Source: Bdellovibrionales bacterium (lineage in GTDB: Bacteria > Bdellovibrionota > Bdellovibrionia > Bdellovibrionales > JAGQZY01). From it: 64,000 nt of DNA. The notes under the pieces are model-generated. The model saw only the letters and a list, made by a program, of their open reading frames with translations, was not told where the DNA came from and did not search any database. The DNA is taken from NCBI GenBank assembly GCA_031426555.1, contig JANPLN010000036.1:1-64000 (forward strand), given 5' to 3'. Below are positions 3,275 to 52,460 of the stretch, piece by piece; the stretch's first letter is position 1; the number at the start of each line of letters is the position of its first letter. Position numbers and translations under genes: made by a program.

Positions 3275-3993
3275 TCGTGCTTGGCAAAGTTAAGAACCTC
3301 TTTGTCATTTTCGCAATTAACGGTACCTGGTGATGGCGGGCAGGATAACGAAATATGCATGTGATCATTGTGTAAAGCGTTCGACGGATCATGGGTGTGT
3401 TGATGCCCGATGGAACACGTGCAGTTTTTTCCGTTCACTTCGGCCACGGCGGCATCCCAACAAGTACGAAAGGAATCGTAAAATGGCTGGTTGGAAGTTT
3501 TGTCGGTGAGCTGGATTCGCTGAGTGCTTTCGCGCCCCAACATATCCCTCGTGTGAAGTCGAATTGCAGAGACGTCTAAAGCCATCCCGTGGGAGTGACG
3601 GCTGCGCTTGGTGCTGTTGCGTGCATCTCGGTTTGCGTAACCACCCATTTGCTCTATAGAAACACTCGTCGGCAAACTTATTCCATTTTTTACAGCTGCT
3701 TCTTTCGCGCATTTAGGTATGAAGGCTTTGATAAGTTGCGCAAAGTACGGGTTCAGAAGCATCTCGCACGTCTGCAGCGCTTGGCCATTGCGCGAAATGG
3801 CGTCTCGATCGGCATAGACAGAAAAAGACTGATCTCCATTGCAAAGATTCTGCGACGACATATTGTTGAGTGCTCCATTCGCAATGGCTACTTCGTCCAC
3901 GTTGTACTGCTGAATCTCTCGTCCTCGACTCGTAACCTCGCCGGCTTGAATAAAACTTGTAAACAGCAGAATTCCTAAGGTAAAAATCGTCAT
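3271..3993 (-). CDS. Secreted extensin-family / peptidase M15-like protein
   Basis: Signal peptide; GGYANR...SRHSHGMALD and LHNDHMHI motifs (H-x6-D, H-x-H). Confidence 0.7.
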   Translation of the reverse strand: MTIFTLGILLFTSFIQAGEVTSRGREIQQYNVDEVAIANGALNNMSSQNLCNGDQSFSVYADRDAISRNGQALQTCEMLLNPYFAQLIKAFIPKCAKEAAVKNGISLPTSVSIEQMGGYANRDARNSTKRSRHSHGMALDVSAIRLHTRDMLGRESTQRIQLTDKTSNQPFYDSFRTCWDAAVAEVNGKNCTCSIGHQHTHDPSNALHNDHMHISLSCPPSPGTVNCENDKEVLNFAKHD

Positions 3994-42842: not shown

Positions 42843-43607
42843 ATGACGGTCAAGCCTTTTTCAAAAGAACTCACCGAACAAATACTCTCTCAAATCGACG
42901 CTTTTATTGCCACAAATCAAGGGCCCCACTACGCCGCGTTTGATGCCGATGGAACGCTTTGGAACTCCGATGTGGGTGAGAATTTTTTTCAATACCAAAT
43001 TGACTTTTGCGAGCTCGCTCCGCTGAAGTCATTGGACCCTTGGAAACATTATGAAAGTCTTAAAAAAAATTACCCCCCAGACGCTTATCTCTGGCTTGCA
43101 CAACTTTGTGCGCCGTATCCACTGGAAGAGGTTCGCGAATGGGCCCAGGAGACTTTGACGTCTTTTCCACCCGTGGTTCTTGCCTCGCAAAAAGTGCTTA
43201 TCGCGGAATTACTAAAACGAAAAATTCAGATTTTTGTTGTGAGCGCCTCGACCCACTGGGCTGTGGAAGCGGCGGTCTCGCTTGTTGGCCTTGGACCAGA
43301 GTGTGCTTTGGGAGTGAAAACGAAAGTGGTCAACGGTCTGGTAACTAAAGAGCAAGAGGGTTCCATCACCTGGCGCGAAGGAAAGCGCACGGCACTCCTC
43401 GAAAAAACCCAGGGAGTGGCTCCCATCTTTTGTTCCGGAAACTCTTCGGGAGACTTGCACTTACTCGAGTGCTCGTCGTTGATTCGATTGGCGGTGCAAA
43501 CGCAAACGGCCTCATCCAAACATGCAGGGCTTTTTCAGGATGAACAAAAACTTTTAGGCGTTGCTAATGAGCGTGGATGGCTTACACATAATTTTAATTT
43601 GCGTTAA
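42843..43607 (+). CDS. HAD-superfamily hydrolase
   Basis: FDADGTLW, VVSAS, GK and GNSSGD motifs. Confidence 0.88.
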   Translation: MTVKPFSKELTEQILSQIDAFIATNQGPHYAAFDADGTLWNSDVGENFFQYQIDFCELAPLKSLDPWKHYESLKKNYPPDAYLWLAQLCAPYPLEEVREWAQETLTSFPPVVLASQKVLIAELLKRKIQIFVVSASTHWAVEAAVSLVGLGPECALGVKTKVVNGLVTKEQEGSITWREGKRTALLEKTQGVAPIFCSGNSSGDLHLLECSSLIRLAVQTQTASSKHAGLFQDEQKLLGVANERGWLTHNFNLR

Positions 43608-44985
43608 TAAACGGAATTTTTCCCAAACGCACTTGCATTGATGCATAGGCGCGAAGCACGTCGGCTGTTGTTTCTATAATGCGAAGAGAGGCTTCGGCTG
43701 ACGCCTGTTCTCGCAAATTGACGATGAGCACGTTGGTGTCGCCTTGTCGAAAGCGTGTGCGCTCACCGTTTTCTAAATATTGAGCCAATTCATGCTCCTG
43801 GATGGACAGCTCTCTTCGCTCTATCGAAACCTCTAGATTTTTTTGTAGGGCCGCAAGCTCTGCTTTCCACTGACGTTCTAAAAGCTCTCTCTCAAACTCC
43901 ACCTTCCGTATATTGGCTGAAACCTGATCTCGCTGACCCTTAATGTTTCGATACTGTAGTGGCACCTGGAACTGCAAGCTGACGGTCGTATTATCGTCGG
44001 CCAGTTTGGTTCCCCCAAAGCCGCTGTCCTTGGAATATTCTGCCTTCAAATCCAATCTTGGCAAGAATTGGTTCTGCTGCAGATCTTTGTCGATATTAAG
44101 CTGTGCCAGTTGCGTCGCAATGGCCGCAAACTCCGGACGGTCATTCAGCGCTCTCTTCATCAGTTCATCAACCGGCCTTTTAAATTCAGACGTCTGTTGC
44201 GGCACAAACCAACGAGACTCGATATTTTTGTCTGACAGCGAGGAGGACACCACTTTTTTTTGTAAAAGCTCACTGGATATGAATACCGCCAGTTGTGATT
44301 CGCGCGCCTTTAGCTCTAAGTCAGCTTGCAATAGAGAAGATTGCCTTAATAGCACTGTTCTTAAATTGTCTTTGCGTTCAAAAACTGGGATGTCGCCAGC
44401 TCGAGTGCGTTTTTCCAGCCACTGATCGCGAAGTTTAGCGATATCCAAAAGACTTTTCTGAATTCTCCATCTTCCGAGTGACACTTTCCAATTCCAATAT
44501 GCAAAAAGTGCTTTCTCAATCTCCCGTAGTTCTGTGGCGCGAAGCTGAAGCGTTTGCCTCTCGACTTGCAATTTACTTTTATTGAACGTGGCACGACGAG
44601 AATCGGTTAAAAATCCTCTCAAAAGAGGAAGCTTCGCCCCCAGGTTCCACTCTCCCCGGTCCAGAGTCTCTTGGTCACCGTAATAGATCGGAAGAAGCCC
44701 TCGGCTTTCGCGAAACCCGCCATAGAGATCTAAGCCAAATAGCGACGTTGGTTTTCTGATTTGTGAATCAAAGACAGAATACTCGTAGTCTCCTGTCGTA
44801 TCTTTCCATTCTCCCTCGATCACTATATCAAAAGCCCCTCTTGCTGTCAGCTCCTGAGCTTCTGAAACCTTCACATCTTGTTGACTCATTTGAACGGCAG
44901 GAAACTGTGAAATGACTTCATTAACCATCTCTGACTCTGTGACGTCGGCCCGCGTGATAAGAGCTAAAAGAATAACTGCTAACAT
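43594..44985 (-). CDS. TolC family outer-membrane efflux protein
   Basis: Signal peptide; ARGAFD, LPLLRG, LPRLDL and VNLREQ motifs. Confidence 0.9.
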   Translation of the reverse strand: MLAVILLALITRADVTESEMVNEVISQFPAVQMSQQDVKVSEAQELTARGAFDIVIEGEWKDTTGDYEYSVFDSQIRKPTSLFGLDLYGGFRESRGLLPIYYGDQETLDRGEWNLGAKLPLLRGFLTDSRRATFNKSKLQVERQTLQLRATELREIEKALFAYWNWKVSLGRWRIQKSLLDIAKLRDQWLEKRTRAGDIPVFERKDNLRTVLLRQSSLLQADLELKARESQLAVFISSELLQKKVVSSSLSDKNIESRWFVPQQTSEFKRPVDELMKRALNDRPEFAAIATQLAQLNIDKDLQQNQFLPRLDLKAEYSKDSGFGGTKLADDNTTVSLQFQVPLQYRNIKGQRDQVSANIRKVEFERELLERQWKAELAALQKNLEVSIERRELSIQEHELAQYLENGERTRFRQGDTNVLIVNLREQASAEASLRIIETTADVLRAYASMQVRLGKIPFINAN

Positions 44986-44988
44986 AAT

Positions 44989-46020
44989 TTATTCCTTTTT
45001 ATCGCTTTCATCTTTCAGTTTGGCTTTTTTGTATATCGGCAAATTACTTGGCGGGAAACCGTTAAATTGCCGCCAGATTTCCCACCCGAGCGGGACATCG
45101 CCTAGCAACACCCAGGAGTTTGCGCGAACTCCCTGGCGCAAATAACGTGCGTCAGGCCATTCGTTTTTATCCGGAACCACAATCACTCGAAAATTTCCCT
45201 GCCCGTCATCCAAAGCATCGATCGTTGCCACACGGCCAAAAAACGTACCCACAGATGCATCGGGCACTCCGGAGAAAAATACCGAAGGCCAACCTTCAAA
45301 GTTCAAAGCCACCTTGTGGTCTTCGTAGACCCAGGGCATATCGTTACCAGATACCCATAGTTCGACAGCGCGAGAGGTGGTCTCGGGCACGATAACAGCA
45401 AGGGGTTCTCCAGCTTTTATATACTCAACTCCGCCAGAAGAAGTTTTTAAAATTCGTACTACAGTGCCGTCGATTGGTGCTTCGATCATCTGTTGCTCTT
45501 GTCGAGAAAGCCGGACGTCAAAGCGCGATAAATCTGCAAGGGAGGTGGCTTCATCAGATTCCAGTTTCGCTAGCTCCATTTGCGCTTGTTCTTGCTGTCT
45601 TCGCGAACTAAGTCCTTGTCGAAACAGTTCTTTTTGACGTGTCACATTCAAATAGGCTGTCTTGCGCCCCAGCTCGATGGCCTCGAATTTTTTTTCTAAA
45701 GCATCACGCTCCTTATTCATGCGGTCGATGATCTGTGGATCGTTGTCAGAAAGCTCGACAATGGGTTCGCCTTTTTTTACTTTTTGACCCTCTTGTACAA
45801 ACCATTTTTGAATACGCCCCTCAATGGGGGCCGTTAGCTCTTGGCGACGTTCTTCGGGATTGAGCGCAATAACGCGTCCATACCCTTGCACCGTTTGCAT
45901 CCAGGGCATAAACCCACAGAGGAGCAGAAAAAAGATTCCAGCATAGATCGTGTACTTGGAATATTTGTGCCAGATAGGCCGATCGCTTATAAGAGCCTCT
46001 AGGGAACGGTGGGAATTCAT
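44989..46020 (-). CDS. HlyD family membrane fusion protein
   Basis: TM, biotinyl-lipoyl APIEGRIQKWFVQEG, and FEGWP...WRQFNGFPP motifs. Confidence 0.92.
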   Translation of the reverse strand: MNSHRSLEALISDRPIWHKYSKYTIYAGIFFLLLCGFMPWMQTVQGYGRVIALNPEERRQELTAPIEGRIQKWFVQEGQKVKKGEPIVELSDNDPQIIDRMNKERDALEKKFEAIELGRKTAYLNVTRQKELFRQGLSSRRQQEQAQMELAKLESDEATSLADLSRFDVRLSRQEQQMIEAPIDGTVVRILKTSSGGVEYIKAGEPLAVIVPETTSRAVELWVSGNDMPWVYEDHKVALNFEGWPSVFFSGVPDASVGTFFGRVATIDALDDGQGNFRVIVVPDKNEWPDARYLRQGVRANSWVLLGDVPLGWEIWRQFNGFPPSNLPIYKKAKLKDESDKKE

Positions 46021-46021
46021 T

Positions 46022-46927
46022 TTAGATCCCCATCTCTAACAGCTTTAGTTTTTTGATGGACACGGCGGAATCGTAATAATAGTCGAGGATATTAGAAAAT
46101 TTAAAAAGTGAAATCAATAAACTCGTCACGATAAGTTCGCTGGCAATCAACTGGCCAATCGTCATTTGATTTTGAAACACGAGAACACCACCGACGATAA
46201 GCAATAATGTAGCTGCCAAAATTTTGATAATAAAAAGCCCAATGGATTGCTTCATATAATTCGCATATTTTTGTTCCCGGAGACTAAAATACTCAAGGAC
46301 TTCTGCTTCAACGTCGATGTCTCCTGGTCGCTCGAGAGAGTCGGCTTGCAATTCTTCGATTAACTGGTGTTTTTTATTCGACTCTAAAATCGCAAGGTTT
46401 AAAGTTTTTTTGCCCATAACTATGGTTACCCAATAAAAAGCAGAAACGAGAACAACACAGTAAATAACGAAGAAGGGATGGTATATACTGATGAGAATCA
46501 TTACCAAAGCAGACTGCAATAAGAAGGTAAACCCATCAAAAAAAAGCGGAATTATACTTTTTTGAAGAGAAACCGATTCAAATATGTAATTTAATTTTTT
46601 CTTGCTTATCGATTTTTGTGATTCTTGCGATTTTATCGCGTAGTTTTTTGTATCTTCAATTGCCTTTAAGAAAAGTCTGCGCTGGAGATATTCGGAAAGG
46701 TGCATTTGCAAAATTCGCATAACTGTAATTCCAACCAGAAAAAGTCCAATCGAAAAAACCAAAAAAACTGTTGATTGTTGAAAAACAAGCAAAGTGTATT
46801 GCTGTATCAAGGTTTGAATCAAAAATGGAATAGACAGTATCAAAAAACTACTTGCCGTTGCAAAAATAAGCATTGCACGAATACTTTTTTTGTCTGCCTT
46901 AAAATAGGCAATCATTTCTTGAATCAT
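46022..46927 (-). CDS. ABC transporter transmembrane domain only (no nucleotide-binding domain)
   Basis: ISIYHPFF, ESNKKH and QMTIGQLIASELIV motifs. The ORF ends after the last TM with no Walker A/B. Confidence 0.8.
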   Translation of the reverse strand: MIQEMIAYFKADKKSIRAMLIFATASSFLILSIPFLIQTLIQQYTLLVFQQSTVFLVFSIGLFLVGITVMRILQMHLSEYLQRRLFLKAIEDTKNYAIKSQESQKSISKKKLNYIFESVSLQKSIIPLFFDGFTFLLQSALVMILISIYHPFFVIYCVVLVSAFYWVTIVMGKKTLNLAILESNKKHQLIEELQADSLERPGDIDVEAEVLEYFSLREQKYANYMKQSIGLFIIKILAATLLLIVGGVLVFQNQMTIGQLIASELIVTSLLISLFKFSNILDYYYDSAVSIKKLKLLEMGI

Positions 46928-47122
46928 AGATCCTCCGCAGAATTTTCAGTATCAATGCTTTTTTAACACAGGTAAAGTGAATATTTGTTTCCCTTAATGG
47001 CGGGCTGGTTCGACGTGCTACTCAAACCGGTAGTATCCTCCTAAAATGCACTATCTTACAAATCGATAATAGAATTGACTTGCATCTATTTAAGCAATAC
47101 CAATTTGACTTGAGGAGTATTA

Positions 47123-48007
47123 ATGAATTTTTGGATTAATTACCACCATCTTTTTTACTTTAAAACCATCGCCGAAGAGGGCACGGTTTCCAAGGCCGCC
47201 GAAAAGCTTCGACTGGGGCAGCCAACACTATCGGCCCAACTCAAACAGTTTGAGGAAACTCTCGGCGTTAAACTTTTCGAAAGAGCTCACAAGAAGTTAA
47301 TATTAACGGAGCAGGGCAAAGTAGCCCTAGATTATGCGAAAAATATTTTCAAAATGGGCTCTGAAATGTATGAGGTGCTTCACGACAGGATCAAGCCTCT
47401 AAAACCTTCTCTTCATTTGGGCGCTCTCGACAGTGTTCCAAAACAAATTGTTCTTCAGCTGGTCAAACACGCCTTCAAAATTTCGCTCTGCCAGATCACC
47501 CTGTCCGAGGGCAAGTCAGATGAGCTCATGCGAGAACTTTCGGCCCATCGTATGGACCTAGTGGTGACAAACTTTCTGCCGACGGGCACTGATGCTAAAG
47601 GACTTTATCCTAGATCTATAACCAAGAAAAATGTCGCTTTCTTTGCGGCTCCAAAATTTAAACGGTTGAGGAAAAATTTTCCTCAATCTATTTCCGGCGA
47701 ACCGATGATTTTCCCCACATACGACAGTCGACTCCGTCAAGATCTGGAACATTGGGCAAAAATCAACCATATTGAACTCAACATTATTACTGAAAGCCAG
47801 GATATATCCGTAAAAAAATTGATGGCGATTAATGAGCTCGGACTGATACCCACTGCCACCCACACAGTCACAGGACAAGTATTGCGGGGCGAGTTGATTG
47901 AAATTGGCCAACTCCAGGGAGTTTACGAAGAGCTTTTCTTGGTAAGTGCTCAAAGAAAGATTGAAAACTCAATCGCTTCAAAACTGAGAGACTCTTTTAT
48001 TGTATAG
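47123..48007 (+). CDS. LysR family regulator, NhaR-like
   Basis: WINYHHLFYF...KAAEKLRLGQPTLSAQLK; LDSVPK. Confidence 0.93.
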   Translation: MNFWINYHHLFYFKTIAEEGTVSKAAEKLRLGQPTLSAQLKQFEETLGVKLFERAHKKLILTEQGKVALDYAKNIFKMGSEMYEVLHDRIKPLKPSLHLGALDSVPKQIVLQLVKHAFKISLCQITLSEGKSDELMRELSAHRMDLVVTNFLPTGTDAKGLYPRSITKKNVAFFAAPKFKRLRKNFPQSISGEPMIFPTYDSRLRQDLEHWAKINHIELNIITESQDISVKKLMAINELGLIPTATHTVTGQVLRGELIEIGQLQGVYEELFLVSAQRKIENSIASKLRDSFIV

Positions 48008-48312
48008 CTTTTAGCATTGCAAAGTAGCAGTTTTATCTATTTTAAAATACTTGCATTCTAATTTAAGTTGTCATGTCTTAGCTCTCAACCGCTTGGACTT
48101 TGTTTAAGGCGAACACGAAAGCAAAATCGCCCACTATTCAGATGGTTTTCCCTAGCCTAACCATCTTTTTTGCTTCGTGTTCAGCCTTGCTTTCGAAGTC
48201 CAGCCACTTACCTAGAAAAACTACGTATAGATTAAAGCAATCAACCCTTATGTTTTTATCGAGTTTATTATTTTCAACAAACTCCGTAAGTTAATTACAA
48301 CAGGAGGTTTGG

Positions 48313-49428
48313 ATGACTGCGGATAGTTTAAACATTACTGCTCTAATTAATTCCAAAAAAGGTGTTCACATCTCAATCTACATTCCACGTCCCACCAGTG
48401 ACATTCACTTTAAGAGCCTGGTACAAGCGTCGCTGGCGAAATGTCTAAATCAGATTGGTACCAATCTGACTGCCGAGAAAACTGAGGAACTATTGGGACC
48501 TATTAAAGGACTGATAAACAATCCCAAAATGATATCTGGATTTAACACGAATATTGCAATTTTTAGGACAACTGAATATTTGAGGTTAGTGAGTTTGCCT
48601 ACTGACATTAATTTCTCTGTGCATGTTGCCGACAGCTTTCACGTGAAGCCACTGTTAGCTTATATTAATCAAGACTATAAGTATCTATTTTTTGGATCTG
48701 ACGGCAAAAAAGGATACTTATATCAAGGCTCGAAAAAGTCCTATCATTTAGTTAAGGAGTTTCTGTTTCGTACCGATGATTCTTTCGCCAGTGATGTGAA
48801 ATACAAAAATTTAAAAACTGCCGCTCAGAGAAAAAAATATCTTCTGCGAAAAAACGTAAGCTGGGTTGAAGAAGCTATTTTGGCCATCGACAGGGACCAA
48901 TCGTATTCAATATTTATTTCGGCAAACACAGCGGAGACTAAAACTCTCAGAGATGCTTTAAAAAATAATCAGGTCTACTGGAGAAATGTCTCGAAAAAGT
49001 TTCATCCAGAAAACGAAAAGTCTACCATGCAGACGATTCATACCACTTTAGACTTGGAAAAGGTCATTTCTTTGAATCTATCTCTGAGCGATTTTGAAAA
49101 GCCAAACCTCCCAAGACTTGCTACTACGTATGTTTCTTATGACCTCAACGAAATTTCAAAAGCTGCGAAGCGTGGGCACGTAAAAAAGCTGTTAATCGCT
49201 TCTGATGATAGCGTGTTTGGGAAGCTTGATGACATAAGCGGAGAAGTAAAAGTGCAAGAGGCAGACATGGACCATATCGATGACGACCTCCTTGATGATA
49301 TCGCTCAAAATGTTTTTAAATCTGGCGGTGAGGTTTTGCTTTTGAAGAAAAAATTAATGCCTTTCGGAGAACTTATTGCTGCCACGATAAAAAATACTAA
49401 AAAAGGAGTGCTACAATGCTCAAAATAG
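48313..49428 (+). CDS. Bacterial archaeo-eukaryotic release factor (baeRF3-like, Balon-like) protein 1
   Basis: HISIYIP, DSFHVKPLL, AAKRGHVKKLLI and DDLLDDIAQNVFKSGGEV motifs; no GGQ; AGGAGG RBS. Confidence 0.75.
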   Translation: MTADSLNITALINSKKGVHISIYIPRPTSDIHFKSLVQASLAKCLNQIGTNLTAEKTEELLGPIKGLINNPKMISGFNTNIAIFRTTEYLRLVSLPTDINFSVHVADSFHVKPLLAYINQDYKYLFFGSDGKKGYLYQGSKKSYHLVKEFLFRTDDSFASDVKYKNLKTAAQRKKYLLRKNVSWVEEAILAIDRDQSYSIFISANTAETKTLRDALKNNQVYWRNVSKKFHPENEKSTMQTIHTTLDLEKVISLNLSLSDFEKPNLPRLATTYVSYDLNEISKAAKRGHVKKLLIASDDSVFGKLDDISGEVKVQEADMDHIDDDLLDDIAQNVFKSGGEVLLLKKKLMPFGELIAATIKNTKKGVLQCSK

Positions 49429-49772
49429 CCTTTAAAAACTTAGACAAATCGCAACTTGCTTCCGACATAGTTACGGAAAGATTCGAGTTGCTATTAAAAA
49501 AGTTCCCTGACCTGGAAGACCATAATATCGAAGTTTATTTATCTATGGAAAACTCGCCTTCACAAGTAGGACGTGACTTTTTTGCCGTGAACGTTGTTTT
49601 CACTGGCAAAAAGTACGGCAAACTTGTTGTAGAAAAGAAAAACATAAACCTGTACGTTGCCTTGGACGACTTACTACTTGTCATGCAGGAGACTTTGAAT
49701 CGAAAAGGAGACAAGGTGCGCGTTCGTCGACGAACTTCATCGAGAAAACAAAAATTAACTTATGCTATCTGA
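49416..49772 (+). CDS. HPF/RaiA family ribosome-associated protein
   Basis: MLKIAFKNLDKS...NLYVALD...LNR pattern with a basic C-terminal helix; overlaps the upstream stop, AAGGAG RBS. Confidence 0.75.
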   Translation: MLKIAFKNLDKSQLASDIVTERFELLLKKFPDLEDHNIEVYLSMENSPSQVGRDFFAVNVVFTGKKYGKLVVEKKNINLYVALDDLLLVMQETLNRKGDKVRVRRRTSSRKQKLTYAI

Positions 49773-49791
49773 AAAGGAACTTTGGACGCGA

Positions 49792-50778
49792 TTATATGGT
49801 ACTTTTATATTCGTCCCGTAGAATTCCGAAAATCACCATACTTTCTGGCATATCCGTTTGGGGCACCACAGTCACGGTCCCCTTATGCTTTATTACAAGC
49901 TCCGACAGATCATCTAGAATATCGTCATCGTAGGAATCTACTTGCTTTAAATGGGTTGTGATCTTTTCCCTACTTGGATCTATATAGCCCCAAACTTTTT
50001 TGTCCCCTGCTATGTAAAGACTTTTGATTTCGCCTCGCTTTGCATGGTTAAAAATGTCTTCGATGCGCGAAATAATTTTGCCTTTTATTTTTGCAGCCAG
50101 AAACTGCTCGGAAATTTTCGCCTCTAATTTTCTAAAAACTGGCTCAATATGCTTAAAGATATGTCGCAGTAATTCTCTGGTTTTTAATTTCTGCGAAATA
50201 AGTAGGGGATCTTTGTAGGAATTGTCATAGTTTGATACTGATTTAAATCTATCTATCTGATCGAGGTTACCTGTGAAAACGAGTAAGAGTTTTCTTTTTG
50301 CAAGAATGTTCATTACATAGTGGTCAATTTTTAAGTAATCTACTTGGTTTTGTGGAACTTTGAAAATATCTAAAAGAACTAAGGTCTTCATATTCACTTG
50401 AAAGAATTTTACGTTGCTATCGGCGAAAACGAGCATCGCAATGTCTTTGTTTCGCTGATGCATTTTGATGAGAGGTTTGATGTGAAAACTGGTAGAAACT
50501 ACGAACAGCTCTTCTTCGCATTTAATAAGTGGCACATACATTTTTGCGTGGCTACTCAAAAAAACTGCCGCAGGAAACGTCTCTATAAGGTTTTTCCCAG
50601 CTTCGATGGATCCAAATAGCGCTAGAAACTGTTCTGCATTAAGATCTTGCCGGGCCACTCGTTGAGCTTCCTCAATTAACCTCTCAAGCTCCTTAAAATT
50701 GCTTACGTAAAAGCTCGCACAAAAATCCTGGTTTTGTGTGCCCGCGAAAAGTACGTCTTCGTAAGATACTTTTTTAAT
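49792..50778 (-). CDS. baeRF3-like (Balon-like) protein 2, probable ATT start
   Basis: FHIKPLI, AKRGEIKSLYI and DDILDDLSELVIKHKGTV motifs. Frame stays open 40 codons upstream of the GTG at 50658, to an ATT preceded by GAGAGG. Confidence 0.7.
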   Translation of the reverse strand: MKKVSYEDVLFAGTQNQDFCASFYVSNFKELERLIEEAQRVARQDLNAEQFLALFGSIEAGKNLIETFPAAVFLSSHAKMYVPLIKCEEELFVVSTSFHIKPLIKMHQRNKDIAMLVFADSNVKFFQVNMKTLVLLDIFKVPQNQVDYLKIDHYVMNILAKRKLLLVFTGNLDQIDRFKSVSNYDNSYKDPLLISQKLKTRELLRHIFKHIEPVFRKLEAKISEQFLAAKIKGKIISRIEDIFNHAKRGEIKSLYIAGDKKVWGYIDPSREKITTHLKQVDSYDDDILDDLSELVIKHKGTVTVVPQTDMPESMVIFGILRDEYKSTI

Positions 50779-50796
50779 AGAACACCTCTCTACTTA

Positions 50797-50823
50797 TTAT
50801 CGGCTATTCATCTGCATTGATGA
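50797..50823 (-). promoter_or_regulatory. sigma28-like promoter of baeRF protein 2
   Basis: Perfect GCCGATAA (50804-50797) 18 nt before the ATT; weak -35 TCAT at N15. Confidence 0.45.
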
Positions 50824-50863
50824 AAGTTATAATAAGTATGTTCTGCATCGTTTAAATCGAAGT

Positions 50864-52063
50864 TTAGAAAATGATCTGAAAGGTGCCGTTGCCACCTTCC
50901 CAGCTGGGAGCATCCAGATCTGCTGTCAAATACAGGTGTAAAAAGGAAGTTTCATTAAAGTGAATTGTGTAGCGGAGGTTTCCTCTGTGCTCGACATCTT
51001 TGTTAACATCAGGAGGAATTCGCAGAAACTCAGGCCCAGAAATTGAATAGAGAGACGCCTCGTAGCCAAGGCGTAGCTGATTTACATTTAACTGATTGCC
51101 CATTAAAGTGTACCAAATATGCGGCGAAAGCGTAAGGGAACGAACTGCTTCGGAGTTGACTTCCCAGCGTCTACTGACACTGGCTATCCCGTAGGTCCAA
51201 TATGTATTCTCGTATTGAAGGAGCGCATCAGTGTATTGATTGCGCCAAAGTCCGTAACTACTATCAACCACCCCCTGCTGTTGAATCCCTTCATGGCGAT
51301 ACTTATAGCTGACGTCGAAATGAACTTGCTGGTTATCTCCAGCGAAAACCTTTGTTCCCCGGAGGCCCAGTTTCGCATCCCTATGACTGTAATGTTCTCC
51401 CGTATCTAAATTTCGATTCAGTGGCGACTGAATTCGTCCATAATACTCTAAGAAGGAGCTATCTTCATCGTTTAGAAAACGTCCTACAAATCCGTAAGCC
51501 ATTGCACGACGACGATCCGACTCATTGCGATCAGTTCGCTTGTTGAAGGAGAAATCAATCCAGGTCGTGTAAAATCGTAGTTGATGATTTTTCCCTGCAT
51601 CGATAAGTATGGCAGCACCAAAGTCGTTCCATTTTTTTTCGCTTTTAAGCTCTGTATATGCCACTAAACTTAAGAATGAACTCACTCGATACTGGAGTTC
51701 TAATATGGAGTGATTCACACTTTGCTCTAAATCTTTCTGTTCGGCGTAAGCCAATCGGAAGACGAGATGACTGTTAAGTTGTGTATCGAGCTTTAAACGG
51801 TGTTGTGTGGCGAACCGTGACTGACTCAGACTTCCTATTGATAAATCGTAAACTCGGCTAGATCTCAGGAATGAAGAGTGCATTGAGTTCGGAATACGGT
51901 AAGTTAAAATATCAGAAAAATACTCTGAATCCAGAAGAGAAGGCCTATTTATTTCTGTAATTTCGGATTCAGAAAAATATCCATACTCTTCAAATTGCGC
52001 TGCAGCCGGAAGTGCCGCAATAAACAACAAGATAGAAAGATAACTAGAGCTCTTTGATAACAT
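50864..52063 (-). CDS. Hypothetical outer-membrane beta-barrel protein
   Basis: Signal peptide, alternating beta-strand pattern, C-terminal Phe. Confidence 0.65.
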   Translation of the reverse strand: MLSKSSSYLSILLFIAALPAAAQFEEYGYFSESEITEINRPSLLDSEYFSDILTYRIPNSMHSSFLRSSRVYDLSIGSLSQSRFATQHRLKLDTQLNSHLVFRLAYAEQKDLEQSVNHSILELQYRVSSFLSLVAYTELKSEKKWNDFGAAILIDAGKNHQLRFYTTWIDFSFNKRTDRNESDRRRAMAYGFVGRFLNDEDSSFLEYYGRIQSPLNRNLDTGEHYSHRDAKLGLRGTKVFAGDNQQVHFDVSYKYRHEGIQQQGVVDSSYGLWRNQYTDALLQYENTYWTYGIASVSRRWEVNSEAVRSLTLSPHIWYTLMGNQLNVNQLRLGYEASLYSISGPEFLRIPPDVNKDVEHRGNLRYTIHFNETSFLHLYLTADLDAPSWEGGNGTFQIIF

Positions 52064-52073
52064 TCAGTCCGTC

Positions 52074-52460
52074 TTAAAGCGGCGACTCGACACACTTTTT
52101 TCGGTCGCAGACCGTGGTTGTGGTTATGAGGACTTGGCAAGTTCCCATGGTGTTGCCGCCATTAAGTTGAAGATTCTCTTTGCTAATCGCCTCATGCAGT
52201 CGAGCCCGCTCGATGATTTTGGCGTATTTCGGGTTGTGTGTCGAAACAACGAGGAAGCCCGCAGGACCGCCGCAATGGCGCGCACCCAAGGCCACAGACT
52301 TGCATTCCTCCGTTCTTGTACACGACAGATCGGAGTTGAGATCGAGGATCTCTTGCATCAAATCATCGGCATTTGGCTTGGCTTTCGTTGCAGGAGGGCC
52401 TCCAGCAGCAAAACTTGTAAAAGCAAAATTAAATAACAGACTCATTAAAAATAGACGCAT
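52074..52460 (-). CDS. Secreted Cys-rich hypothetical protein
   Basis: Signal peptide; CTRTEEC...GARHCGGP...C..C..C. Confidence 0.7.
   Translation of the reverse strand: MRLFLMSLLFNFAFTSFAAGGPPATKAKPNADDLMQEILDLNSDLSCTRTEECKSVALGARHCGGPAGFLVVSTHNPKYAKIIERARLHEAISKENLQLNGGNTMGTCQVLITTTTVCDRKKCVESPL

Follow-up and report, generated by a model that had tools for sequence, protein, structure and literature searches.

The closest known counterparts of the locus studied here are Balon of Psychrobacter urativorans (AOC03_06830; structures 8RD8, 8RDV and 8RDW), together with its RaiA, and the mycobacterial proteins Msmeg1130 and Rv2629 (8V9J-L) (PMC10901736). Three elements define Balon. An HP motif lies at the decoding centre, the catalytic centre receives a lasso loop and bL27 trap, and EF-Tu(GDP) is held by a hairpin. 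Its genes most often lie beside raiA, 603 species (38%) have two to four copies, and all of the proteins are without GGQ; Rv2629 was reported to bind the A site and to inhibit translation (PMC10901736). A link between baeRF genes and HPF, and an unconstrained loop length in inactive baeRF families, were described in PMC6514570. We analysed a locus of this kind in a 64,000-nt stretch of a Bdellovibrionales bacterium genome (contig JANPLN010000036.1; the whole stretch is called the window). Here two genes for Balon-fold proteins, which we designate A and B, flank the gene for a short protein of the HPF/RaiA family, behind a gene for a LysR-type regulator (Table 1).

As first framed in an initial annotation, namely, two Balon-like proteins around an HPF, the cassette is known in kind and unsurprising, because the Balon-RaiA pairing, multiple copies per genome and the baeRF-HPF link have already been published. 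The protein pairing itself is familiar; the less familiar parts are a shared LysR switch and the missing ribosome-gripping loops. We consider it fairly probable that the locus is a stress cassette, accessory in Bdellovibrionota and activated by LysR, through which ion, pH and inorganic-carbon homeostasis is coupled to ribosome protection. No paper linking Balon or RaiA with NhaR, TerC or SbtA, or Bdellovibrio with hibernation factors, was found in a search that had most subscription papers and the homolog and neighbourhood supplements of PMC10901736 and PMC6514570 outside its coverage.

A and B have a Balon-type fold and adjoin an HPF-like gene

GGQ is absent from A and B, as the initial annotation had stated, and reading of the translations showed that NIKS is absent too. 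With the Balon model NF052287 (cut-off, 330 bits), A scored 65.1 bits and B 54.6 bits, both under the cut-off, and the canonical baeRF3 homologs checked with this model also were under it (172 to 197 bits). B scored 30.9 in one run and 31.7 in another against baeRF_family3 (PF18845; gathering score, 31.5). A had no direct PF18845 match; many of its homologs at 25 to 32% identity carry that domain. Balon topped the Foldseek lists for both AlphaFold2 models, with an E value of 1e-19 and a template modelling (TM) score of 0.64 against 8RDW for A (predicted local distance difference test [pLDDT], 87) and TM scores of 0.77 to 0.78 for B (pLDDT, 90). VIA-align gave B a Z score of 25.2 with Balon (root mean square deviation, 3.5 A over 316 residues) versus 12.3 with aRF1. 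In these models the three-domain aeRF1-type fold is kept entire and is closest to Balon, which bears out the earlier assignment of both proteins as Balon-like baeRFs.

The gene between them encodes a member of the HPF/RaiA family, as had been proposed: the protein scored 24.8 bits against PF02482 (gathering score, 23.7), 42 of 45 homologs match PF02482 at an E value of 0.01, and the family profile finds PSRP1 and P. urativorans RaiA (8RD8_D). Against the canonical HPF/YfiA model TIGR00741 it reached 18.8 bits, under the cut-off of 40.9. No HPF above the TIGR00741 cut-off was found in the window's genome or its five genus mates, whereas 31 of 61 genomes overall have one; this agrees with a suggestion that a lineage whose hibernation factors are reduced takes up others (bioRxiv 10.1101/2025.11.04.686544). 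We rejected the idea of a novel HPF loop, as the beta2-beta3 loop has the length of that in PSRP1. Another HPF-like gene was seen at L002 1477-1860 (+) (G000 C62); its product is acidic (net charge, -8), it has no copy of the operator described below, and the genome is without a canonical HPF.

The coordinates bear out the arrangement described earlier. A and the HPF-like gene overlap by exactly 13 nt, and B converges on the latter with stop codons 19 nt apart. One related locus, L035, has the same order of A, HPF and B. Three more pairs of A and B orthologs lie on contigs of the same size (185437, 12256 and 5459), which suggests that these pairs also are colocated.

The proposed ATT start of B was upheld: the ATT column is methionine in 7/7 full-length orthologs, and B of L035 has ATG behind an identical ribosome-binding site, AGAGAGGTG. 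A GTG start at 50658 (288 aa) was discarded since it would delete the first strand and helix, found in all orthologs. One DNA read run showed no differences over 46800-52200, ATT included, although this run may be the source of this DNA and so not independent. ATT is a weak start codon and is sensitive to IF3, as in infC and pcnB.

A and B share a LysR operator

On either side of lysR, the spacers contain a palindrome, gtATnG-N7-CnATac, of the T-N11-A type found in LysR sites (PMC11495319). It is followed, after an invariant 12-nt gap, by a second box, tTTATCtATTTtA, and then by a -10 element. The second box was seen in 45 of 49 eligible downstream spacers and 33 of 52 eligible upstream spacers, and -11A and -7T are conserved in 91 to 100% of 45 + 32 promoters. 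The palindrome and the 3' end of lysR (final codon plus stop) overlap in most loci (window 48002-48007). A generic promoter and terminator scan performed at chance level and was set aside.

A position weight matrix (PWM) of the operator, trained with the window and L035 left out, was scanned over the 6,278,798 positions of the window's genome. This gave eight matches above 9 bits, and the top four all were at the cassette: 47100(-) at 33.7 bits, 48002(+) at 30.7, 48225(+) at 24.4 and 50863(-) at 16.1. The next match scored 13.7 bits and had a negative palindrome score. In this genome the operator heads A-HPF twice and B once, lying 88 nt upstream of A (nearer site) and 85 nt upstream of B; in L035, B has an operator site of 11.5 bits at the same 85-nt distance. 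A and B had been thought to be under different control, A downstream of LysR and B behind a sigma28-like promoter. That view is not supported, as both have the same two-box LysR operator 85 to 88 nt upstream of the start.

Elsewhere, the operator precedes genes for beta-carbonic anhydrase (2), NhaA (2), CBS (2), HtpX, metal-independent carbonic anhydrase and HPF. baeRF, TerC and some other operator-preceded genes are training positions; outside the training spacers, the operator was found before two beta-carbonic anhydrase genes and one ion-transport gene. The LysR protein scored 133.2 bits against NhaR (NF008284), the best of 56 families and under the cut-off of 219. When the PWM was applied to the Escherichia coli nhaA, pgaA and osmC regions, the best two-box scores were negative.

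The cassette is accessory and has ion and carbonate neighbours

A genome scan returned 243 relatives, of which the best 80, nearly all named Bdellovibrionota, were taken; the counts of neighbours are limited by the available flank. HPF was a neighbour at 60 of these 80 loci, LysR at 56, TerC/Alx at 40, a 140-aa protein at 36, HtpX at 17, SbtA at 15, metal-independent carbonic anhydrase at 4, and beta-carbonic anhydrase and NhaA at 3 each. Where there was enough flank (L111 was skipped), LysR was directly upstream of baeRF in 50/74 loci and HPF directly downstream in 57/71. In the usual order across Bdellovibrionota, TerC and then HtpX point away on one side, and on the other the NhaR-like LysR is followed by baeRF3, in some cases the 140-aa protein, HPF and SbtA. 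TerC has been lost at the window's cassette and is still present in L035; two TerC genes elsewhere in the window's genome have no operator. These neighbours (TerC, NhaA, SbtA and carbonic anhydrase) point to alkaline, Na+ or carbonate stress as the signal. The 140-aa protein has a hydrophobic stretch, lies between baeRF and HPF (e.g., L078 9116-9547 [+]) and had no Pfam or NCBIfam match; it does not occur in the window.

The cassette is accessory, not core. In G003, of the same genus, the flanks are collinear (86% identity) up to 46986 and from 52073, and 81 nt replace 46987-52072. G001 and G002 have a different LysR at the cassette site, with a weak related operator, facing the same TolC-HlyD-ABC-membrane genes. 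A baeRF was found in 0/5 genus mates and in 13/61 genomes. Across the phylum, the B profile matched 68/401 genomes at an E value of at most 1e-12, eight of them with two matches, and among those 68 genomes none besides the window's has a true B ortholog. One genus mate, G005, has a reduced LysR-operator-HPF cassette without baeRF at another site (L145 8269-9629).

A and B differ from Balon in the ribosome-contacting loops

The loops were compared in an alignment of 179 nonredundant proteins of at least 320 aa, from which two N-truncated rows were later dropped. The literal HP motif was found in 21/36 canonical baeRF3 proteins, 1/116 A-clade proteins, 0/8 B proteins and 0/17 others. This contrast is partly circular, because membership of the canonical group was decided on a motif adjacent to the decoding loop; the trees separate the same canonical, A-clade and B groups with support of 98 to 100. 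In the aligned stretch Rv2629 also is without a literal HP, yet it binds the A site; loss of HP thus lowers membership in Balon and not necessarily function. The N-domain anchor distance is 90 residues in canonical proteins, 87 in the A clade and 75 in B. In the middle domain it is about 84, 60.5 (range, 32 to 66; A itself, 62) and 39 residues, respectively, making the catalytic-centre loop of A about 22 residues shorter than the canonical one. The shortened middle domain noted earlier for B therefore is real, although it is not unique to B, as 28/116 A-clade proteins also have 47 residues or fewer.

B is without both the decoding loop and the catalytic-centre loop; at the latter, a strand in the model runs almost directly into a helix. 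The missing decoding loop is the rarer trait; one other protein has it, in L180, where the loop-less baeRF stands alone and heads a c4-HPF-SbtA operon. The strands of the C-terminal hairpin are present in the models of both A and B. The hairpin has 24 residues (mostly 23 in canonical proteins) and aligns to Balon gap-free, both it and the acidic DDxLDD stretch are retained in all of the groups compared, and the C-terminal domain of B is intact. Conservation is highest in FHxKP and in the C-terminal G-K/Y-x-D...DDxLDD. Judged from these alignments, the divergence from Balon exceeds loss of GGQ, since all Balons lack GGQ: HP is gone, and B is without both rRNA-contacting loops.

The earlier description of A and B as paralogs stands as deep homology (23% identity, E = 3e-5; profile-profile probability of 99.2%, E = 2.8e-19 over 301 columns) and fails as a common clade. 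A belongs to a large LysR-linked clade that excludes B (support, 100/94; 99/96 under a mixture model). Recent local duplication was rejected: forcing A and B together cost 91 log-likelihood units, with an approximately unbiased (AU) test P value of 6.1e-5 (43/179 rows). On these trees, A and B separated long ago, as out-paralogs. L024, L064 and L181 likewise have a pair of baeRFs around a single LysR or HPF. A shared origin of B and the second copies in L024 and L064 had only moderate support (93/86 and 85/83, with a long-branch warning) in one tree and was not resolved by a later one, and we do not claim it.

Proposed action of the cassette

In the reading that we favour, the NhaR-like LysR would sense a signal, most likely alkaline, Na+ or carbonate stress, and activate sigma70-type promoters. 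A and HPF would be translationally coupled and, by analogy with Balon and RaiA, bind 70S ribosomes, HPF on the mRNA and tRNA sites of the 30S subunit and A in the A site, where its C-terminal hairpin would hold EF-Tu(GDP). Ribosomes would thus be paused and shielded. B would be an older, separately derived family member within the same regulon that is being turned down or lost here; because it keeps the fold and has neither rRNA-gripping loop, it may be a weaker or auxiliary A-site occupant. What the analysis shows is the folds, the lost loops, the deep split, the operator, the gene context and the indel; LysR activation under such stress, the binding of A and HPF to 70S and the weaker role of B are inferences from these.

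Several observations weigh against this reading. At 16.1 bits the B operator scores less than any training site (minimum, 22.0), and the B-position sites of L035, L024 and L064 also are weak (9.4 to 12.5 bits). The inducer is read from the neighbours only, given a LysR under the NhaR cut-off and no match to the E. coli operators. At 65 and 55 bits, A and B are far below the Balon cut-off of 330, and HP occurs in 1/116 A-clade versus 21/36 canonical proteins. There is no TerC at the window locus and no SbtA anywhere in the window's genome. Six loci of other lineages in the phylum (L182, L183, L187 and L189-L191) have a stand-alone baeRF without LysR, TerC, HPF or the operator.

A bolder version, which we regard as rather doubtful, is that these proteins form a phylum-wide Balon-fold branch without HP (B being without both loops) that relies on a coencoded long-loop HPF and EF-Tu(GDP) and is switched on not by starvation but by a ligand-sensing LysR, together with genes for carbonate, Na+ and pH transport. 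If true, the signal would trigger a pause in translation that serves in alkaline shock and can be reversed; B would act as a second A-site factor, either minimal or damping, and a small RNA might be coinduced. The control of Balon genes is little known; here the regulator, an operator defined at base level and the coregulated genes predict an inducing condition. A and B also would be natural deletion mutants of the three elements that define Balon, retaining only the EF-Tu hairpin, and hence offer a test of which contacts ribosome hibernation requires.

Alternative readings

One alternative, which we judge unlikely, is that the Bdellovibrionota proteins, above all B, no longer are A-site hibernation factors and work by way of their conserved C-terminal domain. 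They could, for example, tether EF-Tu(GDP), antagonise RelA or give a Pelota-like aid to splitting or rescue, or B could compete with A and so damp it. The clade-wide loss of HP is consistent with this, as are the middle loop (32 to 66 residues in A-clade proteins and 39 in B, versus about 84), the N-domain of B (75 versus 87 to 90) and the conservation centred on FHxKP and the C-terminal blocks. B also is without the basic residues with which the post-loop helix begins and which PMC6514570 connects with rRNA binding. The full three-domain fold is nevertheless retained and close linkage with HPF persists (57/71). In addition, Rv2629 binds the A site and inhibits translation without a literal HP (PMC10901736), and an unconstrained loop length already was known for inactive baeRF families (PMC6514570).

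A still less likely alternative is that B is a decaying relic without function here and that only LysR-A-HPF works. In this lineage B does look downregulated or less constrained by selection, given its ATT where 7/7 orthologs have a standard start, a tail 10 to 15 residues shorter than in orthologs and 22 versus 7 derived changes relative to its sister ortholog (P = 0.008), while A has 13 versus 14; its operator is the weakest of the four. Against decay, the frame is intact for 328 codons, a strong ribosome-binding site and promoter are kept, most changes are conservative, and the lost part of the tail lies beyond the modelled fold. Comparison with L035 gave proportions of nonsynonymous differences (pN) of 0.225 for A, 0.219 for HPF and 0.266 for B and of synonymous differences (pS) of 0.81 to 0.83, indicating purifying selection on all three; pN and pS are given in place of dN/dS because synonymous sites are saturated. 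For B, the pN of 0.27 against a pS of 0.83 speaks against the relic. LysR had a pN of 0.073 and a pS of 0.88, so that A, HPF and B change about three times faster than LysR. A metagenome scan with the B profile returned L035 alone.

B also carries the sigma28-like box GCCGATAA (50804-50797), which matches the Bdellovibrio FliA consensus TTAAG-N16-CCGATA (PMC3627812) at 6/6 positions of the -10 and 3/5 of the -35 (5/6 and 3/5 in L035), and the genome has a FliA gene above cut-off. Given this match and the presence of FliA, a second FliA input on B is possible. The promoter proposed in the initial annotation accordingly stands as to the box and its perfect -10, and is weakened by the 3/5 match at -35 and by the fit of the box to the -10 shared by the cassette, since its position coincides with that of the -10 in the TerC-direction promoters. 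These promoters have -11A in 100% and -7T in 97%, and the first C of CCGATA in only 28%. That the locus is a three-part attack-phase storage system, in which LysR would control A and FliA would control B, is very unlikely. In its favour, the box has the right spacing, FliA drives 66% of mapped attack-phase promoters in Bdellovibrio bacteriovorus (PMC3627812) and a conserved, FliA-like CG precedes the -10 in all cassette promoters. Against it, B shares the LysR operator of A, and the TerC-direction promoters are nearly as FliA-like (means, 3.4/5 and 4.75/6) yet keep the sigma70 -11A/-7T at 97 to 100%. The B gene of L035 has GACGATAC, and 181 copies of GCCGATAA were counted in the genome. The nearest relative is without the cassette (a 5,086-nt indel), baeRF was found in 0/5 genus mates and 68/401 phylum genomes, the neighbours phylum-wide are pH, Na+ and carbonate stress genes, and the predatory habit of this organism is presumed only.

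A full FliA-type promoter match, TAAAG...GCCGATAA, was seen at window 58633 (+) and can serve as a control against which to set the partial match of B. The stand-alone baeRF3 lineage (L182, L183, L187, L190 and L191) has a long basic middle loop and no HP, with a sigma54-type activator-like gene near all five; its members are likelier candidates than the cassette copies for a life-cycle role.

Other features of the locus

The features of the locus are listed in Table 1. The first operator occupies the TerC position of relatives, and here it faces the ABC-membrane, HlyD and TolC genes; its -10 element looks degenerate. These export genes (43594-46927 [-]) have lain right behind the strongest operator since the loss of TerC and include a 301-aa gene without an ATPase domain.

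The hairpin between the two operators of A has C-rich loops and its own -10 element upstream. One of the same shape occurs in L035 at 3505-3615 (-) (z = -3.0), with different stem sequences. It is a candidate for a LysR-induced small RNA or leader. Searches gave no Rfam match, and nhmmer found no third copy in 191 loci or the rest of the genome. A riboswitch or known RNA was rejected, as there was no Rfam match and a two-sequence MAFFT alignment folded to a poor consensus.

The 399-aa protein had no Pfam or NCBIfam family, no operator was found for it, and it is absent from L035. Homologs of this porin-like protein lie near baeRF in L024 and L030.

Table 1. Coordinates of features at the cassette, by position in the window
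Feature	Position	Strand	Basis
Accessory cassette (LysR, hairpin, A, HPF, B, outer-membrane protein)	46987..52072		5,086-nt indel vs same-genus G003
LysR operator pointing away from lysR	47053..47100	-	Top genome-wide PWM match, 33.7 bits
NhaR-like LysR-type regulator, 294 aa	47123..48007	+	HTH_1 + LysR_substrate; best NCBIfam family NhaR
Operator/promoter 1: palindrome over lysR stop, box 2, -10 TAAGTT at 48064-48069	48002..48069	+	30.7 bits, genome rank 2
Long hairpin, between two operators	48095..48201	+	-44.4 kcal/mol, z -7.85, 0/200 shuffles
Operator/promoter 2, -10 TAAGTT at 48287-48292	48225..48292	+	24.4 bits, genome rank 3; kept in L035
A: baeRF3/Balon-fold protein, 371 aa	48313..49428	+	NF052287 65 bits, E 7e-18; AlphaFold2 + Foldseek
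Short atypical HPF/RaiA-family protein, 118 aa	49416..49772	+	PF02482 24.8 bits vs 23.7
B: baeRF3/Balon-fold protein, 328 aa, ATT start	50778..49792	-	PF18845 borderline; AlphaFold2 + Foldseek
Operator/promoter of B, -10 GATAAT at 50801-50796, includes GCCGATAA	50796..50863	-	16.1 bits, genome rank 4
Outer-membrane beta-barrel-like protein, 399 aa	50864..52063	-	Within indel; Atlas points to porin-like clusters at a recognition score under the threshold

Comparison with known systems

Like Balon, A and B have a three-domain aeRF1-type fold without GGQ or NIKS and a C-terminal beta-hairpin of the same length, and they share with it an adjoining HPF/RaiA gene, more than one copy per genome and a stress-operon setting. 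Unlike Balon, they have about 15% identity to it, fall far under the NCBIfam cut-off and have no HP motif. The catalytic-centre loop is shortened in A and absent from B, which also is without the decoding loop. Two copies lie in one locus under one LysR operator, and the neighbours are TerC, SbtA, carbonic anhydrase, NhaA and HtpX rather than Hsp20, OsmY, HdeD and RtcB.

With family 3 of the baeRF-1 clade (PF18845), as described in PMC6514570, they share the C-terminal beta-hairpin insert, the lack of a catalytic glutamine, a variable catalytic-loop length, an HPF neighbourhood and a patchy spread. The proteins studied here differ from it in forming a Bdellovibrionota-rich branch apart from the canonical PTHRxHP members (support, 98 to 100) and apparently in their LysR/TerC context.

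The regulator resembles that of the E. coli NhaR regulon (nhaA, osmC and pgaA; PMC6307784) in that NhaR is its best family and NhaA is in the target position at some loci; moreover, an annotated nhaR is divergent from an HPF/RaiA gene on one Azonexus plasmid. It is unlike E. coli NhaR in its score (133 versus 219 bits) and in an operator without a match to the E. coli targets. Finally, the HPF-like protein resembles the long-loop HPF/RaiA proteins, chloroplast PSRP1 and P. urativorans RaiA, which are the best solved-structure matches of its profile, and has a beta2-beta3 loop of PSRP1 length. Unlike them, it has its own MxNSPxQxGPD loop and LNRxGD tail and is without the C-terminal dimerisation domain.

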